Shown here one piece after another: positions 29,431-38,750 of a stretch of 64,000 nucleotides of DNA (positions within the stretch are counted from its first letter, which is position 1; each line of letters opens with the position of its first letter). Position numbers and translations under genes: made by a program. The notes beneath the pieces are model-generated. The model ran no database searches and was not told the DNA's origin. It worked only from the letters and a program-made list of their open reading frames with translations. Source of the DNA: Chamaesiphon sp. (GTDB lineage Bacteria; Cyanobacteriota; Cyanobacteriia; Cyanobacteriales; Chamaesiphonaceae); assembly GCA_965246715.1 (NCBI GenBank), contig CBDFFH010000022.1:111404-175403 (forward strand). The letters are read 5' to 3'.

Positions 29431-30150
29431 ATGATAAATCCTAAAACTCAGTTATTTGCCATCACCACCGTTGCTACTGCCGTATTTAGCCTGGGTATCT
29501 ACAGTGTTGCTAATTCTCGATCGCCGATGGATATGAGTACCTCAATTGCCAAAGAGCAAGGGGGCATGAATCATGGCGGGATGAATCATGGCGAGATGAA
29601 TCATAACGGGATGATGAAACAGAGCGGCGGTATGACTCATAATATGGATGTTGGGCCTGCCGATGCTAACTACGATTTGCGCTTTGTGGATAGTATGATT
29701 CCGCACCATCAAGGTGCTCTAGTCATGGCTCAAGAAGTACTTGCAAAATCTAAACGTCCCGAACTAATTAAACTAGCAAAAAGTATCATCTCCGACCAAC
29801 AGCAAGAAATTACGCAGATGCAACAGTGGCGGAAACAATGGTATCCCCAATCATCAGATCTCCCAGTCATGTGGCATACCGCAATGAAGCACGAAATGCC
29901 GATGACAGCGGAACATAAAGAAATGATGCAAATGAATATGTCACTAGGTAAAGCAGATGCCCAATTCGACAAAAGATTTCTCGATGCCATGATTCCTCAT
30001 CATCAAGGAGCGGTAACTATGGCAAAAGATGCTCTCCAAAAATCTCAACGTCCCGAAATGCAGAAGTTTGCAAAAAGTGTCATCACCTCTCAACAGAAAG
30101 AGATCGACATGATGACTCAATGGCGTAATAAATGGTATGCAAAGAAATAA
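29431..30150 (+). CDS. DUF305 domain Met/His-rich metal-binding protein (CopM-like)
   Basis: Signal peptide, MNHG repeats, two MIPHHQGA motifs. Confidence 0.88.
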   Translation: MINPKTQLFAITTVATAVFSLGIYSVANSRSPMDMSTSIAKEQGGMNHGGMNHGEMNHNGMMKQSGGMTHNMDVGPADANYDLRFVDSMIPHHQGALVMAQEVLAKSKRPELIKLAKSIISDQQQEITQMQQWRKQWYPQSSDLPVMWHTAMKHEMPMTAEHKEMMQMNMSLGKADAQFDKRFLDAMIPHHQGAVTMAKDALQKSQRPEMQKFAKSVITSQQKEIDMMTQWRNKWYAKK

Positions 30151-30197
30151 ATGTTTGGGTTGGCTCTAGCCGAGTTAGACTTACACTAATCTATCTA

Positions 30198-30468
30198 ACC
30201 TGAGTTCGGGATAAGAGGAGCCTGGAGACTGAAGTCTCGGCTCATGATGCGAAGTCCGCCTGTCTTGAAAAAGTGCGGTCTTGGGGAAAACCCAAGACCG
30301 CACTTTTCGCTTCGCGGACTAAGATATTCAGTCCGCCTTCGCGGACTTCGCACTACTAGCACCGATTTGCGGTGCGCGCTCGTCGGGTTTCCCGACGTAA
30401 AAAGCGCAACAAGACACAATCGAGTGCGGTGCTAATGCGGAGCCAATATCCTTAAGCCGAACTGACGT
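30198..30468. mobile_element. MITE, type-B ends around a GTCCGC/GCGGAC palindromic core, with two ~50-nt hairpin insertions
   Basis: acctgagttcggg ... ccgaactgacgt; flanks tatcta/tagcta; insertions at 30261-30310 and 30369-30416. Confidence 0.8.
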
Positions 30469-30474
30469 TAGCTA

Positions 30475-30687
30475 ACGTCAGTTCGGCTTAAAGATGTCCA
30501 CTTAATGACTCCTAGCTTCGTTTCTGAACCGCCCTCAAATGAATTAGTTGCTCATAGCAAAAGTTCTCTGAAGAGAACTGCCCAATTGATTAGTTCGTTG
30601 AAACGAACTTTTGCTATTAGCCCGAACTTATAGTTCAGGGCGGTGCTTGAACGGAGCAGATCGATTTTCCTTATCCCGAACTCACGT
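30475..30687. mobile_element. MITE type B, target duplication TAGCTA
   Basis: acgtcagttcgg ... ccgaactcacgt with tagcta on both sides; sits directly against the preceding element. Confidence 0.88.
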
Positions 30688-30738
30688 TAGCTAACAAGTT
30701 ACTTTTGTTGAGTTTTTTTAAAACAAGATTATTGTAAA

Positions 30739-30766
30739 ATCCCGACTTCTTTAGAGAAGTCGGGAT
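30739..30766. repeat. palindromic REP-like repeat or terminator hairpin
   Basis: atcccgacttct-ttag-agaagtcgggat, downstream of galE. Confidence 0.6.
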
Positions 30767-30800
30767 CTGTCGTTATACTAACTTAGTAGCGGCGATCGAT

Positions 30801-32154: not shown

Positions 32155-32607
32155 TTATTTCCAGCGTTTAGCTAACAGTTGTTCTTCTAGCGCAGCGATC
32201 CGATTATAAGCAGCAGTCAATTGTGCGGTCAATCTTTGGATTTGGATCTGTGGCGATAAATCTTGCCGCTCGATCTGATGGTGCCCGATCTCCATCCCGC
32301 TGCTATCGATGAGAACATCTTGTTGGGAGACAATCCACTCAGATGTATCCTGACGATAGCTCGAACCACCAGGAAGATCGGCATATCCACTATTGCGATA
32401 CTTGCTGCCAGCTTGCCGCAGGCGTTGAATATCATCACGATCGAGCAATCGAGAGGGAGCCAAGCCTCCATTTTGATGCATGGCTCCCTCTCGATTGCTC
32501 GGTTGAGGTTCTAGCTGCGAGAGATGGTCGTGTAAGCGATCGATTACTTGATAAATCCGATCGACTTTTTGGGTCAGGGTTGTAATCTGTTGTTGGATTG
32601 ATTCCAT
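32155..32607 (-). CDS. hypothetical protein with coiled-coil termini
   Basis: 150 aa; C-terminal QIQRLTAQLTAAYNRIAALEEQLL resembles a conserved cyanobacterial small protein. Confidence 0.7.
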   Translation of the reverse strand: MESIQQQITTLTQKVDRIYQVIDRLHDHLSQLEPQPSNREGAMHQNGGLAPSRLLDRDDIQRLRQAGSKYRNSGYADLPGGSSYRQDTSEWIVSQQDVLIDSSGMEIGHHQIERQDLSPQIQIQRLTAQLTAAYNRIAALEEQLLAKRWK

Positions 32608-32878: not shown

Positions 32879-33514
32879 CTAAGGTGCCAATCGATCGATC
32901 TGCCATTCCCCAGCAACTAATTGATAGCGTAATCTGTCGTGGAGCCGACTGGGACGACCTTGCCAAAACTCGATTTTCTGCGGAATGACGCGCACGCCGC
33001 CCCAATGTGAGGGTTTGGGAATTTCTCGATCGTGATATTCGGTTGCTAATGCTTGGAGCTTGGTTTCTAGCACGGAGCGATCGGGAATAATCGAACTTTG
33101 CTCGGAAGCCCACGCTCCCAGTTGACTGCTGGCTGGGCGGCTGTGAAAGTATTCTGTGGCCTCTGATTCGGCGACTAGCTCGATTTTGCCCTCGATCCGC
33201 ACTTGACGTTCTAAATCGCCCCACAGAAACACCAGCGCGGCATGGGGACAAGCTTGGAGTTCGAGACCTTTTTGGCTGTTGTAGTTGGTATAAAAGACAA
33301 ATCCACGCGCGTCAAATTGCTTCAGCAAAACAATCCGCGCTGAGGGTTTGCCCTCAGCTGTCACGGTTGCGACTGTCATCGCATTGGGTTCTAATAAATT
33401 GGCCGCCACAGCTTGCTCGAACCATAAACTAAATTGCTCGATCGGATTGGCGACAACATCTGTCTCTAGTAGTCCAGCTTGAGTATAATTTTTGCGGAGG
33501 TCAGAGACTTTCAT
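32879..33514 (-). CDS. pdxH: pyridoxamine 5'-phosphate oxidase
   Basis: LRKNY, PSARIVLLK, FYTNYNSQKG, RQVRIEG and EFWQGRPSRLHDR. Start placed at MKVSDLRK (33514). Confidence 0.95.
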   Translation of the reverse strand: MKVSDLRKNYTQAGLLETDVVANPIEQFSLWFEQAVAANLLEPNAMTVATVTAEGKPSARIVLLKQFDARGFVFYTNYNSQKGLELQACPHAALVFLWGDLERQVRIEGKIELVAESEATEYFHSRPASSQLGAWASEQSSIIPDRSVLETKLQALATEYHDREIPKPSHWGGVRVIPQKIEFWQGRPSRLHDRLRYQLVAGEWQIDRLAP

Positions 33515-33582
33515 TGAGGGAATAGGAGTTAGGGGTTGGCAATGAAGAAGGAGAGATCCTCCATTTACCATAACTAATTAAC

Positions 33583-33605
33583 GGCGTTGCTGAATTATGG
33601 TATGA
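33583..33605 (+). mobile_element. solitary left end of a type-D MITE (GGCGTTGCTGAAT..GGTATGA)
   Basis: Same end as the complete element at 40145-40326; immediately followed by the IS110 left junction. Confidence 0.65.
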
Positions 33606-33659
33606 ACTGCCCCTTGTATCCCAAAGGAAGGTCAAAGAGTAAAATCTGCGATCGCTTGT

Positions 33660-33835
33660 CAACAGCAAAAGGCAAAGGGAAATTCGGATTGCCCCTAGGG
33701 ACACTAAGCCCGTTAGTGTAGATCGAATCACCTGAGTCTAGACAGTGGTACCAGTCAAAACTGGACAGTATCAGCGGTCGCCAGCTCGTCGATCGGGTAA
33801 ACCTGCATTTAATAAGGATAGTTTATCGCCACTAA
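33660..33835 (+). ncRNA. putative IS110 bridge RNA
   Basis: Two internal loops. Target loop: attcg-g-ATTGCCCCT-(stem-loop)-GTGTAGA-t-cgaat. Donor loop: aaact-gg-ACAGTATC-(stem-loop)-AATAAGG-at-agttt. Layout and donor guide match the IS621 bridge RNA as I recall it. Ends are approximate. Confidence 0.75.
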
Positions 33836-33874
33836 TTGCGGTTGAAGTGGTTCTTTAGCACACAGAAACTAGAG

Positions 33875-33998
33875 ATGAGTAGTTCAAACCAAGAGTTAGA
33901 TATACTCGGCATCGACATTCGCAAAGCCAAATTTGCGACCAAAATCGCGCTAAGGTCTTCTCAGCGTGCGTTTTGCTCAAGACGACGTAGCTTTGCTC
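33875..33998 (+). pseudogene. N-terminal fragment of an IS110 DEDD recombinase, split by a 49-nt hairpin insertion
   Basis: MSSSNQELDILGIDIRKAKF, then the 33935-33983 insertion, then DVALL. Removing the insertion restores the GIDxxKxKFDVAL motif. Confidence 0.8.
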
Positions 33999-34042
33999 TC
34001 CAGATACTCCCAGCACGTCCAAATCTCGAAACTCCTAAACCA

Positions 34043-34864
34043 ATGCCTACAAACCCAATTGTCACCGCTGCATGGCTTCACGATCGATTATGCGATCCTA
34101 CCGTTGCACTAGCAATCATAGATTGTCGATTTGCACTGGCAGATCCGGATCTCGGGCGACAGCAGTATGCAGCCGCCCACATTCCCGGCGCACACTACAT
34201 GGACTTAAATCGCGATCTGTCTAGTCCCGTCCGCGAACATGGCGGTAGACACCCATTGCCTGACGCTCGGGTCTTCGGGGACAAATTAGCCGCGATCGGG
34301 ATTAACGATCGAACATTAGTTATCGCTTACGATGATTCGCGCTTTGCCTTTGCCGCACGCTTGTGGTGGTTGTTGCGTTATTACGGACACGATCGCGTGG
34401 CGGTATTAGATGGTGGTTATGACAATTGGGCAAAAGCGGGTTATTCGGTGACTGCGGAGCTGCCAGCACCAGCCGAACGCGGCAATTTTCAGCCCCAACC
34501 TCAGCCAGCGCGAATCGTTGATATCGCCGCAGTCAAATCGCTCCTGCATTCATCAGCGCATGTGCTGGTAGACTCCCGGGAACCCGATCGCTATTTAGGT
34601 AACACCGAACCGATCGATCCCCGTGCCGGACATATCCCCAGCGCGGTCAATTATCCCTGGCAAGCTGTTTCTACACCAGATGGATTCGTGTTACCTGTCG
34701 ATCGACACCGCGAGCGGTGGGCGACAATTTCGCCAGATGTGGAACCGATCGTCTATTGCGGTTCGGGCGTGACAGCTTGTGTCAATCTCTTATCGCTAGA
34801 ACTTGCTGGCATCACGCGATCGAAGCTCTATCCTGGGAGTTGGAGTGACTGGTGTTCTTATTAG
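34043..34864 (+). CDS. tandem-rhodanese sulfurtransferase (SseA/MPST-like)
   Basis: HIPGA, GGRHPLP, AARLWWLL, LDGG, GHIPSA, YCGSGVTAC and YPGSWSDW motifs. The ORF-track extension to 33836 is IS-derived. Confidence 0.93.
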   Translation: MPTNPIVTAAWLHDRLCDPTVALAIIDCRFALADPDLGRQQYAAAHIPGAHYMDLNRDLSSPVREHGGRHPLPDARVFGDKLAAIGINDRTLVIAYDDSRFAFAARLWWLLRYYGHDRVAVLDGGYDNWAKAGYSVTAELPAPAERGNFQPQPQPARIVDIAAVKSLLHSSAHVLVDSREPDRYLGNTEPIDPRAGHIPSAVNYPWQAVSTPDGFVLPVDRHRERWATISPDVEPIVYCGSGVTACVNLLSLELAGITRSKLYPGSWSDWCSY

Positions 34865-34868
34865 AGCG

Positions 34869-35050
34869 CCCAAGTTGCTACCTATAAGCAAAGCGGTTAG
34901 AAACCGCTCCTCGGAATGCAAAGTCCGGTTGTTGCCGCTCGCGGCAAAAGCCTGCCTACGCGGACTAACTATCTAGTCCGCGTAGGCGGACTTTGCAGCA
35001 TTAGCCGCGACTTCAGTCGCAGGCATTATATAAGGTAGCAACTTAGGTTA
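34869..35050. mobile_element. MITE type A
   Basis: cccaagttgctacct ... aggtagcaacttaggt around a gtccgcgtaggcggac core. Confidence 0.8.
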
Positions 35051-35089
35051 CATATACACTAATCGATCGGATTTAGCGTGCAGCTAAAA

Positions 35090-35938
35090 TCACACCATTT
35101 TCTTGAGGAACGTTTTCAGATTACTGAGAAATGTAGTAGAAACAGGGCGCTGTTTAGAGTCGAGATCGATGGATGGCAAGATTAGTGCCGAGTCGCTCGG
35201 TTGGAGTGGCTGAGGCGGAATTTCACGGATCGTCCCAAAAACACTCAATCGAAAGCTGATTTGACGAACGATCTCGATCGATAGCGCCATTTTTAATGCC
35301 AATTTAACTAATGGTGTTTTGCCATCAGCTAACTTCCATAACTCTAACTCATGGCGATTGAGTTCAAAATTAGGTTGCTGCGAATTGCATCGTTGAATTG
35401 CATAATGTGGGTCGGGCAACTTGGCACTCAATCCGCTCCAATCCTTCAGTAATCTAAGGGACAATAATCCTAAATCCTGGGCGGAGGCGCTGATGCCAGT
35501 CAGCTCGGAATTAATTGGCGAGCGACCGGGATCGAACTGAAATCGGCTATTCTTGAGTTCAAATAGTCGATGGATTGGTGAGATTGTTTGAGAATTAAAC
35601 AAAAACTTAAGCTCTGCGGCATCTAGCAATCCTTGCGACTTCAAATAAATACCTAGTGGTTGCGGTAAACGATCGAGGATGGTTGTCACTGGATAAATTT
35701 CAGCTTGGGACATTAATTTCCGCCGCTCGATCTTCGTCAATAGTTCGCTACCGTCTATTCCAGAAGTAACAGCCACAATCCGACCGCTTTCAAACCATAA
35801 ATAATCGTGGTTATTACTGGGAACTGTAGCTAAATTTCGATCGGGAGAAAGTGTGAGTAATCCAGTCCGATTGCCTTCATAAATAAAGCTAAAAATTTCT
35901 GCCAAGGAATATTCTGATAAATACCCAGAAAATTTCAT
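35090..35938 (-). CDS. DUF4388 (PATAN-like) domain protein
   Basis: GYLSEYSLAEIF...RTGLL...WFESGRIVA; paralog of 36648-37520. Confidence 0.85.
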   Translation of the reverse strand: MKFSGYLSEYSLAEIFSFIYEGNRTGLLTLSPDRNLATVPSNNHDYLWFESGRIVAVTSGIDGSELLTKIERRKLMSQAEIYPVTTILDRLPQPLGIYLKSQGLLDAAELKFLFNSQTISPIHRLFELKNSRFQFDPGRSPINSELTGISASAQDLGLLSLRLLKDWSGLSAKLPDPHYAIQRCNSQQPNFELNRHELELWKLADGKTPLVKLALKMALSIEIVRQISFRLSVFGTIREIPPQPLQPSDSALILPSIDLDSKQRPVSTTFLSNLKTFLKKMV

Positions 35939-35971
35939 ACTGCTAACTGTAAGATTCTTAGATATTAATAA

Positions 35972-36532
35972 CTAACAAATAATTGCTACTTCTTCAACAT
36001 TAGTATTTGCCATATAATGCTCTACGAGCGCGACCAATGCATCGATGACAGATTCTTCTTCATCGGCATTTACCGACACGATCGGTGGACGCTGAGCGCT
36101 TTCTTGATAGCCTAATGCTAAGGCGATATCTTCATTTCCCCAAGCTCCTTCACAATCACCGTGAGTAATACCGATAATCATCGGAACGTGCGAGCGCTGA
36201 TTCATGAAATTCATAATTCGACGTGCGTGATGAAATTCGCCCGGTCGATGTGCTGCAATTAGTAACACATAAGCATGAGCGCGCTCGATCAAAATTTCCC
36301 ACATAAAATCGAACCGAATCTGACCGGGAGTGCCATAGATATGTAATGCCATATCTTCGCCAAATTGGAGCGTCCCAAAATCCATCGATACAGTAGTATT
36401 TTGCTTCATACCTGCCACCTCATCAGTGGCTTTGCGATCGGTATCGACAACTTCAATCTCACTGGCAGAGCGAATAAATGTACTTTTTCCCGCCCCTACC
36501 GTTCCCGTAACCACTAAACGCATAATTTCCAT
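35972..36532 (-). CDS. small Ras-like GTPase (MglA/CvnD-like ATP/GTP-binding protein)
   Basis: GTVGAGKST (G1), TTVSMDFG (G2), YGTPGQIRF (G3) and THGD (G4). Confidence 0.9.
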   Translation of the reverse strand: MEIMRLVVTGTVGAGKSTFIRSASEIEVVDTDRKATDEVAGMKQNTTVSMDFGTLQFGEDMALHIYGTPGQIRFDFMWEILIERAHAYVLLIAAHRPGEFHHARRIMNFMNQRSHVPMIIGITHGDCEGAWGNEDIALALGYQESAQRPPIVSVNADEEESVIDALVALVEHYMANTNVEEVAIIC

Positions 36533-36647
36533 ATTTTATCGATCCTATTGTGCGGAAAATCAATGAAATTGTTGAGACAGAGATAGAGCTGGTGGTTACA
36601 AACTTATCTTGCAAATTGGCAGAATAATTAATACTATGTATAGCAAT

Positions 36648-37520
36648 TTAGTTAGTTGCTGAAGTTGAAGACTTCTTGGTTCCTTTTTTAAGAAAATTCT
36701 TTAGATTGCCCAAGAAAGAAGTAGATATGGGTGAATTTTTAAATCCAGGTTCTAAGACTGGTACTGCTATTTCCGCACTCACTGACTGCATTGGCTCGGT
36801 CGGTATTTCTCGAATCAATCTAAACGAACTCAAACAAAAGCTAATCTGTTGGACGGATTCGATCGGTAGATCCATTTGGAGTGCTAATTGTGATAAAGGT
36901 GTCTCGCCATCAGCTAATTTCCATAACTGTAATTCTTGGCGAACGAGTCTAAACTCTGGTTGTTGTGCAGAGTGCTTTTGGATGGCATAATCGGGATTGG
37001 GTAACTTGGTAGTCAATCCGCTCCAATCTTTCAATACGCGCAATCCCAACATGCCCATTTCTTGAGCGGTGAGACTGATGCCAGTCAATTCAGAATTTAT
37101 TGGTAATCTAGTTGAATCGAAATGAAACTGTCTATTCTTAATTGCAAACAGTTTTTGTACGGTCGCGATCGTTTGAGCATTAAATAATAATTTAAGCTGC
37201 TCGGCATCCAAAAAACCCCGAGATTTGAGATGAATCCCCAGTGGTTGTTTGATTTGCTGAATCTGCGTTTCCAATAGTTCGACAAATTTTGGCGTGATAA
37301 ACTTGCGTTGACCGATGGTCGTTAGCAGTCCTTTTCCGTCTAGTCTAGAGGTGACAGCTACAACCCGACCACCAACAAACCATACATAGCGTGGCTCATT
37401 CGGCGCGGTAATTTCGTTTGGATCTGGGGATAGTTCCAATAAGCCACTGCGACTTCCTTCATGAACGAAATTAAAAATTTCTGCCAATGAATATTCTGAC
37501 AAATATCCGGCAAGTGCCAT
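36648..37520 (-). CDS. DUF4388 (PATAN-like) domain protein
   Basis: GYLSEYSLAEIF...RSGLL...WFVGGRVVA; paralog of 35090-35938. Confidence 0.85.
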   Translation of the reverse strand: MALAGYLSEYSLAEIFNFVHEGSRSGLLELSPDPNEITAPNEPRYVWFVGGRVVAVTSRLDGKGLLTTIGQRKFITPKFVELLETQIQQIKQPLGIHLKSRGFLDAEQLKLLFNAQTIATVQKLFAIKNRQFHFDSTRLPINSELTGISLTAQEMGMLGLRVLKDWSGLTTKLPNPDYAIQKHSAQQPEFRLVRQELQLWKLADGETPLSQLALQMDLPIESVQQISFCLSSFRLIREIPTEPMQSVSAEIAVPVLEPGFKNSPISTSFLGNLKNFLKKGTKKSSTSATN

Positions 37521-37854
37521 CTAGCCCTCCAAAATAATAAATAAGCTTAAATCTACTCTTTAGCTCGAACGATACTCGATCTGTAGCAATCGCCAAGAAG
37601 CTTAGGATGAGTAGAGACGCTCCAATAAAACGTCTCTACCGAATCGATTTGCGATTCATTGCTAGCAATATAAAATCTAGATCGGACGCGAACAAATATT
37701 AAAACTAAAGCGGCAAAGCTTGCCAGAAAAGTTCGATAAAAGTCAACATGGATAGTCGATCGACCCATTAAAAATCACAGATCTATCGACTATCGATCGC
37801 TATCTAGCACATCATGCATCCATTTTAGAAAGTCCCAAGGATGGGTCAACTAAT

Positions 37855-38220
37855 TTAATTTAATGCAGCTTTGATTTCGTTAACGGTACGTTTGATGTCT
37901 AACATCAACAAACCTTGCTTCGCTGAATGACTAGCCAAGACTAGTAAGACGGCATCGTCGCCACAACCCATGAGGATACCGTAGCCATCATCACCTTCAA
38001 CCATGACTTTCTCGACGTTACCGCGTGCTAATTCTTTACCGATTCTCTCGCCAAGGGAGAGCATCGCCGCAGACATCGCCGAAGTCCGTTCTTCATCCAT
38101 AGTACCTGGGAGACTAGAGGCTAAAGGTAAGCCATCGGGTGATACCAATGCTGCACCTTGGACATCAGAAGTACCCGAAACAAAGCTCTGTAAAATTCCA
38201 CCAATTGCACTGACACCCAT
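37855..38220 (-). CDS. roadblock/LC7 (MglB-like) protein
   Basis: GAALVSPDGLPLAS, SAMSAAMLSLGERIG and VMVEGDDG motifs. Confidence 0.92.
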   Translation of the reverse strand: MGVSAIGGILQSFVSGTSDVQGAALVSPDGLPLASSLPGTMDEERTSAMSAAMLSLGERIGKELARGNVEKVMVEGDDGYGILMGCGDDAVLLVLASHSAKQGLLMLDIKRTVNEIKAALN

Positions 38221-38279
38221 AATTTCCTCGCTGTGATTAATTTAGATAAGTTAGTAATGAAGTTGAAATCGATCGAGAT

Positions 38280-38750
38280 CTAGACAACGGGAGTAAATTC
38301 AAATACGTCGTGAGTACCACCGCGTAGAACGGATTCAGTATGCATACCACGCAGTTTTTTGCCAGTGATTTCAGTTAATGCACCCCACACAGCACCCATC
38401 GTAAAAGTACATTTGCGGTTGGAACCTGGAAGTTCGCCAGCAGAACAAACAGTCTCAGAACAGTAAACTTTGATGGTGTCGCCTTCTTGGACGATTTTAT
38501 CCACTGCAGTGAGGCGAGTACCTGCACTACCGACGGCTTCGTTTAACTTAGTGGCGATGGTACTCAAGTCGGCAGTAGAACCAGATAAACCTAGCTCGAT
38601 AGCGAGGTTTTTACCACGAGTGCGACCAGCCGCAATCAACGAGATCGCTGTTGCTTTTTCGCCGAGTGCTTCTTCCATACCAGTAATTACTGATTTGAAA
38701 CAAACAATACTGCTGAATTCTCCGAGGCTAGGACGAGTAGAAAGTGACAT
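38280..38750 (-). CDS. V4R-like small-ligand ('hydrocarbon-binding') protein
   Basis: 156 aa; ETVCSAGE..CTFTMGAVWG..HTESVLRGG..DVFEF; first gene of the roadblock/GTPase module. Confidence 0.7.
   Translation of the reverse strand: MSLSTRPSLGEFSSIVCFKSVITGMEEALGEKATAISLIAAGRTRGKNLAIELGLSGSTADLSTIATKLNEAVGSAGTRLTAVDKIVQEGDTIKVYCSETVCSAGELPGSNRKCTFTMGAVWGALTEITGKKLRGMHTESVLRGGTHDVFEFTPVV

Follow-up and report, generated by a model that had tools for sequence, protein, structure and literature searches.

The window analysed here is a stretch of 64,000 nucleotides from a Chamaesiphon genome (G000). Between pdxH (32879..33514, reverse strand) and a rhodanese-type sulfurtransferase gene (34043..34864, forward strand), it carries the left-end remnant of an IS621-type element of the IS110 family, which extends from a CT core (33613-33614) to a last element base at 33998. 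The remnant comprises the junction, a two-loop bridge RNA gene, and 25 recombinase codons interrupted by a 49-bp hairpin repeat, all on the forward strand. A response regulator gene precedes the rhodanese gene in most relatives, and PPK2-like and sqdB-like genes (presumptive labels, assigned from the protein sequences) precede pdxH in many of them; here, the remnant precedes both.

The motifs listed in the initial annotation, including the junction ACTGCCC-CT-TGTAT (33606-33619) and the recombinase ATG (33875), were all found at the positions it gave. The flanking host DNA is the left arm of a REP-like repeat (33583..33605), in which the target palindrome is nested; the arm motif occurs in 86 copies in G000, and this arm was apparently shortened via a 5-base microhomology. 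The left target half and the CT core follow (33606..33614), recognised by motif location and by the orthologue in the complete genome G011, from the same genus. This orthologue reads ATTGCCC, so that the C at 33607 of the window is a later mutation and ACTGCCC, while present, is not the original half-site. Comparison of junctions places the right-donor half TGTAT, overlapped by a -10 box, at 33615..33622. The box (33617-33622) reads TATCCC in the window and TATCCT in the intact copies of contigs C22 and C43, the change at 33622 affecting its last T.

The non-coding left end measures 260 bases and contains the bridge RNA gene (33650..33848), with a predicted 5' end near 33629. The target-binding loop (33682..33728), delimited by motif location, alignment, and the IS621 numbering of PMC11208158, is closed by ATTCG (33682) and CGAAT (33724), and holds the left target guide ATTGCCCCT (33688-33696) and a C>T change at 33705 that is private among the copies compared. 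The motif GTGTAGA (33716-33722), first read as the right target guide, is present, but the guide itself is narrower by IS621 numbering: GTAG at 33718-33721, followed by the handshake bases 33722-33723 (PMC11208158). The donor-binding loop (33759..33823, from alignment and structure) is closed by AAACT (33758) and AGTTT (33820), and bears the left donor guide ACAGTATC (33765-33772), as well as an A>C change at 33775 that breaks an A-U pair kept in 8/8 aligned leaders. Its right donor guide (33807-33816), in which the motif AATAAGG (33811-33817) begins, shows an extra A at 33811 and a C>T change at 33813 when compared with the other leaders.

Recombinase codons 1-20 (33875..33934), including the first catalytic Asp motif GIDI, share 85% identity with residues 1-20 of the family A protein described below. 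They are followed by a 49-bp mobile hairpin repeat (33935..33983), which shifts the frame and has about 20 relatives in G000, with no duplication at the insert. Five further codons, DVALL, occupy 33984..33998, where the element DNA stops; the fragment reads MSSSNQELDILGIDIRKAKF before the hairpin and DVALL after it. The recombinase was rightly called dead, with a frameshift after 20 codons and a gene broken off at 33998. As for activity and mobility, the right end is missing from this copy in addition to the frameshift at codon 20, and the 25 codons by themselves match no protein family. Two candidates for a right boundary were rejected: the CAAGAC tail of the hairpin is part of the hairpin repeat family and not a degenerate right end, and the break at 33998 is no product of CT-core recombination, as no right-target AC comes after it. 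No right half of this subfamily was found elsewhere in G000.

The assignment to IS621-type bridge RNAs was confirmed with a covariance model built on 8 leaders from other elements, the remnants being left out. It scores 154.3 bits against the window (E 2.9e-31), and the match is therefore not due to chance. Across these 8 close leaders, 92% of the cells in the two-loop structure are paired, versus 29-51% in slid controls; 11/33 pairs are altered on both sides, a count that implies no probability, the sequences being related. The two internal loops proposed initially are thus supported by the aligned leaders, but not by the window sequence folded alone, of which the donor loop misfolds and the stability resembles that of shuffled sequences (z -0.58). 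As Rfam contains no related family and the lone fold is no better than shuffles, the case rests on comparison.

The guides can also be compared with the sites in which the elements lie. Left guides were read by a target-blind rule in 42 cyanobacterial elements, which fall into 19 groups with 15 distinct guides between them. Of 43 loci, one was unparsed; L239 (no IS621-type ends), L245, L247, L254, and L256 (no usable junction or leader), and L261 (a duplicate of L088) were excluded as well. The guide matches its own left target at 7/7 bases in 27 elements, 6/7 in 12, 5/7 in 2, and 1/7 in 1 (from genome G047). The mean match is 6.31/7, versus 3.15 after permutation, and 0/20000 permutations reach it, a significance that is overstated because the groups are related. 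The element matching at 1/7 bases, L243 (G047:C20), is a full one, with the left guide GAAACCC in the site ACCGCGA; L261, in the same genome, has a guide fitting the site of L243, which may reflect a guide swap or cross-targeting. Likewise, the left guides of the sister elements L249 and L259 (G071) are one base apart, and each element lies in a site fitting the guide of the other.

The window RNA is not the orphan it was first taken for, since G000 also has a sister family, family A, of four full-length elements that are 84% identical to it over the leader. Three of them have an uninterrupted leader, and the fourth has a leader interrupted by about 220 bp but an intact gene. An insert of about 220 bp with terminal repeats (G000:C43:136217-136427) separates the target-binding from the donor-binding loop in one family A bridge RNA gene. 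The junctions forecast for full-length copies were found in all four, as ATT(G/A)CCC-CT-TG(T/G)AT ... ACAGTAT-CT-AC: the left ones read ATTGCCC-CT-TGGAT (2 copies) or ATTACCC-CT-TGTAT (2 copies), and the right ones ACAGTAT-CT-AC (4/4). The proposed target, ATTGCCC-CT-AC, is borne out by the junctions of 4/4 full-length copies in G000 and by 7/7 left junctions in G011. The family A protein scores 242 bits against NF033542 (cut-off 140), exceeds the cut-offs of PF01548 and PF02371, as befits a recombinase with DEDD RuvC-like and Tnp domains, matches the PDB entries 8wt6 (IS621, E 6.8e-73) and 9t56 (ISCro4, E 5.5e-76), and keeps the D14, E65, D107, D110, and S246 motifs. Judging from sequence, joining the ends of family A would create a promoter TTGACT-17-TATCCT at the circle junction.

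A second family in G000, family 2 (329 aa, 56% identical), counts five copies, one each on C5, C14, and C34 and two on C15. It uses the same donor as family A with a different left guide, CCCGCCCCT; its sites read CCC(G/A)CCC-CT-AC (5/5) and its right ends ACAGTAT-CT-AC (5/5). Its joined ends would likewise yield a promoter, TTGACA-17-TATCTT, whereas the window copy is unable to form such a junction promoter. No copy occupies the target of the other family (0/5 and 0/7 copies). Family A targets the right arm of REP-like palindromes, for which G000 holds 76 intact ATTGCCCCTAC and 39 ATTACCCCTAC sites (shuffled 11-mers average 2.6). A different element, of about 1.6 kb, splits one family 2 copy, and on C15 one copy of each family stands back to back with the other, with about 120 bases between them; the target repeat motif lies near 1/6 loci of Y1 transposases. 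Two complete recombinase and bridge RNA pairs of IS621 type, sharing one donor and differing in target within one genome, constitute a ready test of orthogonality, and the pairs of families A and 2 are a possible tool for cyanobacteria.

IS621 was compared here through published papers and its PDB protein only. These elements resemble IS621 and ISCro4 (IS622) in the donor ACAGTAT-CT-TGTAT, the left donor guide, the GTAG right target guide, the two-loop layout of the left end, the junction promoter, and the insertion into REP-like palindromes (PMC11208160; PMC11208158). They differ in the target, ATTGCCC-CT-AC here and ATCAGGC-CT-AC for IS621, and in their cyanobacterial host, and the window copy lacks the right end and the recombinase. 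The IS621 donor that the initial annotation cited, ACAGTATCTTGTAT, agrees with the supplement of PMC11208160; the donor itself is indeed identical, but the left-donor half exists in the window only as a guide, the right end being absent. The combination of a conserved donor with a different target holds as well, though PMC11208160 already describes the mechanism, the donor conservation, and the target diversity of IS621 relatives. The data of that paper contain TBL_TTCGCCCCTAC as well as ...TTTGCCCCTAC and ...GCCCCTAC palindrome targets, and the searched parts of its supplements hold no match to the exact target 11-mer. A hit on an E. coli plasmid (H14), considered as IS621, was rejected, having no IS621-type ends and 24.6 bits. 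IS1594 of Anabaena, an IS110-family element that inserts in REP-like sequences (cited in PMC3184786), is likewise cyanobacterial and REP-targeting, a likeness drawn from its description. Literature searches for IS110 bridge RNA with self-targeting, cyanobacterial palindrome targets, or recombination at inversion breakpoints returned nothing relevant.

Whether the remnant is still under selection was assessed from its divergence. Its bridge RNA core differs at 11/186 bases (5.9%) between G000 and the G011 orthologue, compared with 23/299 fourfold sites (7.7%) and 9/637 second codon positions (1.4%) in the three flanking genes. Divergence at about the neutral rate makes it likely that the remnant is dead, decays without selection, and lacks a function. 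Neighbouring spacers diverge somewhat less (3/91, 2/50, and 4/271). Over three remnants, 6/16 variable columns show no variation among the 8 reference leaders, where chance alone would give 5.8; left out one at a time, the reference leaders also leave invariant columns (0, 1, 2, 0, 0, 2, 12, and 3). This divergence looks neutral, but 16 variable columns in three copies are small numbers, compatible with weak selection.

The damage differs by copy. The G011 orthologue, which has the same end as the window copy and an intact donor guide, is hit in the left target guide and in the recombinase ATG, now ATA, while the window and a twin remnant on contig C41 are hit in the donor guide. All the target-side guides and the left donor guide of the window are intact; its right donor guide can pair with the donor with one G-U and one extra base. 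The donor-guide C at 33813 is kept in 18/18 cases compared, and the base that replaces it can still form the G-U pair. The inner stem of the donor loop has a predicted pairing of 0.98 in family A and 0.00 in the window (also 0.00 in G047); a donor-loop stem is required for tetramers (10.1101/2025.05.14.653916). The -35 box was lost with the right end, and no sigma-70-like or consensus promoter was found in 33450-34100.

The initial annotation regarded the RNA as apparently intact and perhaps able to act with a recombinase encoded elsewhere. Such a remnant would yield a working bridge RNA by read-through and serve the family A recombinase in trans, which is very unlikely. A partner is available, G000 having three uninterrupted full-length copies and a fourth with an intact gene, catalytic motifs present, and the window keeps its target guides and left donor guide. 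For IS621, bridge RNA supplied in trans works (PMC11208160), read-through is enough for excision, and the RNA suffices without the junction promoter (PMC13626964). The C41 copy sits directly behind a co-oriented gene, and with the rhodanese ATG only 44 bases beyond the window remnant, transcripts may plausibly run through the latter. Against this stand the neutral-looking divergence, the changes at invariant columns, the extra base in the donor guide, the lost promoter with no sigma-70-like replacement in the region searched, and the poor tolerance of IS621 for donor-guide mismatches (PMC11208160). Furthermore, the RNA would add nothing, its target and donor being identical to those of intact copies; the three uninterrupted ones share both its left guides and its GTAG. 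The earlier reading is, therefore, partly supported: the IS621-type identity, the CT core, the donor, and the target held, and the intact RNA acting in trans did not.

IS110 RNA genes standing apart from their recombinase are known from the ssr9/MITEPpu9 modules of ISPpu9 (PMC12288879) and from 10.64898/2026.08.14.744561. The window remnant resembles the former in this respect, but both ends are kept in ssr9 modules, which circularise (PMC12288879), whereas the remnant lacks a right end, and we expect it to be immobile; it exists in two copies that differ in their right borders, neither of them with a right end. The genus has many left-end remnants, of every length, with about 21 separate cases (14 of ATT type, 7 of CCC type). 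Other remnants retaining a whole RNA are L288 and L025, the latter (G020:C1:4395937-4396400) a mini element in decay, in which about 20 bases of the recombinase gene and a tail resembling a right end accompany the complete bridge RNA. Another mini element, L112 (G000:C54:20135-20252; G011 orthologue L096), measures 115 bp and consists of 39 bases of the left end and about 75 of the right, with no RNA and no recombinase, in a single copy; as it keeps both junctions, it could be mobilised in trans.

The position of the remnant immediately upstream of the rhodanese gene suggests another role, as a promoter, leader, or longer start retained for rhodanese expression after a swap had removed the upstream gene. 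An open frame (33836-34864) does connect the recombinase ATG, across the hairpin, with the rhodanese, and the remnant is whole in two species, while its twin is trimmed in G011. Nevertheless, retention for this purpose is highly improbable, considering that the divergence of the remnant is not reduced, that no consensus promoter was located, and that the recombinase ATG is ATA in G011. A conserved fusion to the rhodanese from this ATG was rejected on the last ground, the loss of the codon indicating that the open frame is probably fortuitous.

The remnant itself is ordinary, and its value lies in its surroundings. The twin remnant in G000 (G000:C41:88297-88692, L030) bears the same hairpin, which G011 also has, and ends 4 bases later. 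The window and C41 copies differ at 18/393 bases, and orthologues at 21/393. G011 has, in place of the C41 copy, a stub trimmed to about 60 bases (G011:C3:1242977; L107, L321). The neighbouring genes are exchanged. After dropping 6 of 25 rhodanese loci with less than 400 bases upstream, the rhodanese gene directly follows the response regulator at 16/19 informative loci of other genomes, the remaining 3 being negative. PPK2-like genes, sqdB-like genes, or both lie upstream beside pdxH at 15/25 loci, and pdxH and rhodanese are adjacent at 0/25 pdxH loci of other genomes. Both G000 and G011, on the other hand, have the regulator followed by the C41-type remnant at one site, and pdxH, the window remnant, and the rhodanese at another. 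G011 even shows the regulator, the stub, about 5 kb, PPK2, and sqdB at one place, the last two in the orientation that they have upstream of pdxH in G020.

These arrangements point to a reciprocal exchange of flanks, probably with a copy of the element at each junction. We consider it probable, from the sequence and junctions, the guide-target match, the divergence counts, and the swapped neighbours, that the window holds an IS621-type left end that lost its right end and most of its recombinase, likely decays unselected, and likely marks one of two old rearrangement junctions. Compared with other genomes of the genus, what is new here is the C41 twin remnant and the reciprocally swapped flanking genes, which together document a reciprocal flank swap with an IS110 copy at each junction.

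We infer the order of events and the mechanism of the swap as follows. By analogy with IS621 and the intact sister copies, excision of an active element would join its ends into a circle, forming the promoter TTGACT-17-TATCCT and the donor ACAGTAT-CT-TGTAT. The first loop of the bridge RNA would pair with ATTGCCC-CT-AC in a REP-like palindrome and the second with the donor, and the recombinase would insert the element at CT. An element of a subfamily that is sister to family A, and 84% identical to its four full copies, may have settled in the gap between the regulator and the rhodanese as well as upstream of pdxH, both copies bearing the same frameshifting hairpin. The flanks would then be swapped by a crossover within the two copies, for which homologous recombination of the host is the likeliest agent, and both copies would lose their right parts just past the hairpin. 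The two loci stand in G020 in a relative orientation that would yield an inversion; in G011, the copies are direct and 1.35 Mb apart, so that a simple inversion needs a later event. This history does not explain well the coincidence of truncations 15 and 19 bases past the hairpin, and no REP motif was found in the spacer between regulator and rhodanese in 16 relatives.

Near-identical ends and a common hairpin are, by contrast, explained if the truncation of one copy preceded the rearrangement, in the course of which replication switched templates at a short stretch of REP-arm homology and so created the other copy. This origin is unlikely, though it accounts for copies that end 4 bases apart, diverge as little as orthologues, and share only about 13 bases of left flank beside the core. 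The 4 additional bases of the C41 copy match the recombinase gene, which argues against it, as does the mosaic of derived bases: 33763 is common to the C41 copy and G011, and 33775 and 33813 to the window and C41. The mosaic suggests later exchange and blurs the order of events. Had the hairpin been inserted before the second copy was formed, a recombinase from elsewhere would have made that copy, which turns the earlier in-trans idea around; given the mosaic, gene conversion accounts for the shared hairpin as well.

The bridge recombinase itself might also have made the rearrangement, through a replicative or composite reaction of the element with a distant REP target. ISPpu10 provides a precedent, as its REP-targeting copies border large amplifications and its enzyme acts in trans on split donors, but those elements are intact and active, while both junction copies here are truncated (10.64898/2026.03.19.712850). 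Half-match and copy-out reactions are known for IS621 (10.64898/2026.08.31.748434). A conservative reaction between left and right junctions leaves one element-free side, whereas both junctions here keep a left end, and the right ends that would reveal the product are deleted; we hold this route to be distinctly unlikely. With the element-free junction expected from a conservative bridge reaction not seen, a crossover inside the two copies fits best.

A last possibility concerns the guides as substrates. The DNA of a left guide amounts to a left-target-plus-core site, at which self-deletion by the recombinase might leave stubs, the window remnant and its twin being then the fossil of a rearrangement driven by a bridge element; this is a tentative idea, which we regard as doubtful. 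By taking the guide DNA for the true left junction, the recombinase would remove the donor loop together with its own gene and the right end, and a stub fused to the right target half would be left behind. Of the approximately 21 left-end remnants in the genus, three end at their own left target guide: L094/L028 (G015:C94:4697-4781) continues precisely with AC and the matching arm of the palindrome, L092/L026 (G005:C4:7084-7175) does the same with one decayed base, and L113/L031 (G011:C3:2615872-2615957) ends there within 3 bases, this stub being also a loose end in both contig sets of a G011-like strain. Three of four guide arms would match a self-target substrate, for which the half-match reactions reported for IS621 are relevant (10.64898/2026.08.31.748434). 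Nevertheless, fold-back template switching in the palindrome gives the same product, and plain microhomology suffices for the stubs L098, L100, and L102. The exact guide-plus-AC pattern occurs in 1/401 genomes across the order, namely G015 (G005 lying outside the sample), and fits one subfamily; 0/7 stubs of CCCGCCC type end at their own guide. Among the 120 metagenome matches listed for the guide context, none was an element and all were due to chance. Natural guide-ended stubs and the element family of the window were not found in the literature searched by title and abstract; preprint supplements may hold natural half-match cases. If self-targeting is true, RNA-guided self-deletion is what left many orphan guide RNAs behind as scars, and it concerns anyone whose bridge RNA is transcribed from DNA that the cell itself contains, since the guide cassette is a half-match site.

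Beyond the remnant, the window holds a long, near-perfect hairpin (32433-32510) within a 150-codon ORF (32155-32607), with weak, sub-threshold matches to microRNA families in Rfam. A run of genes at 35090-38750 presumably encodes DUF4388-like, small GTPase-like, and roadblock-like proteins. Short hairpin repeats cluster in the spacers 30150-30800 and 34865-35089, and the latter differs strongly from G011 through insertions.
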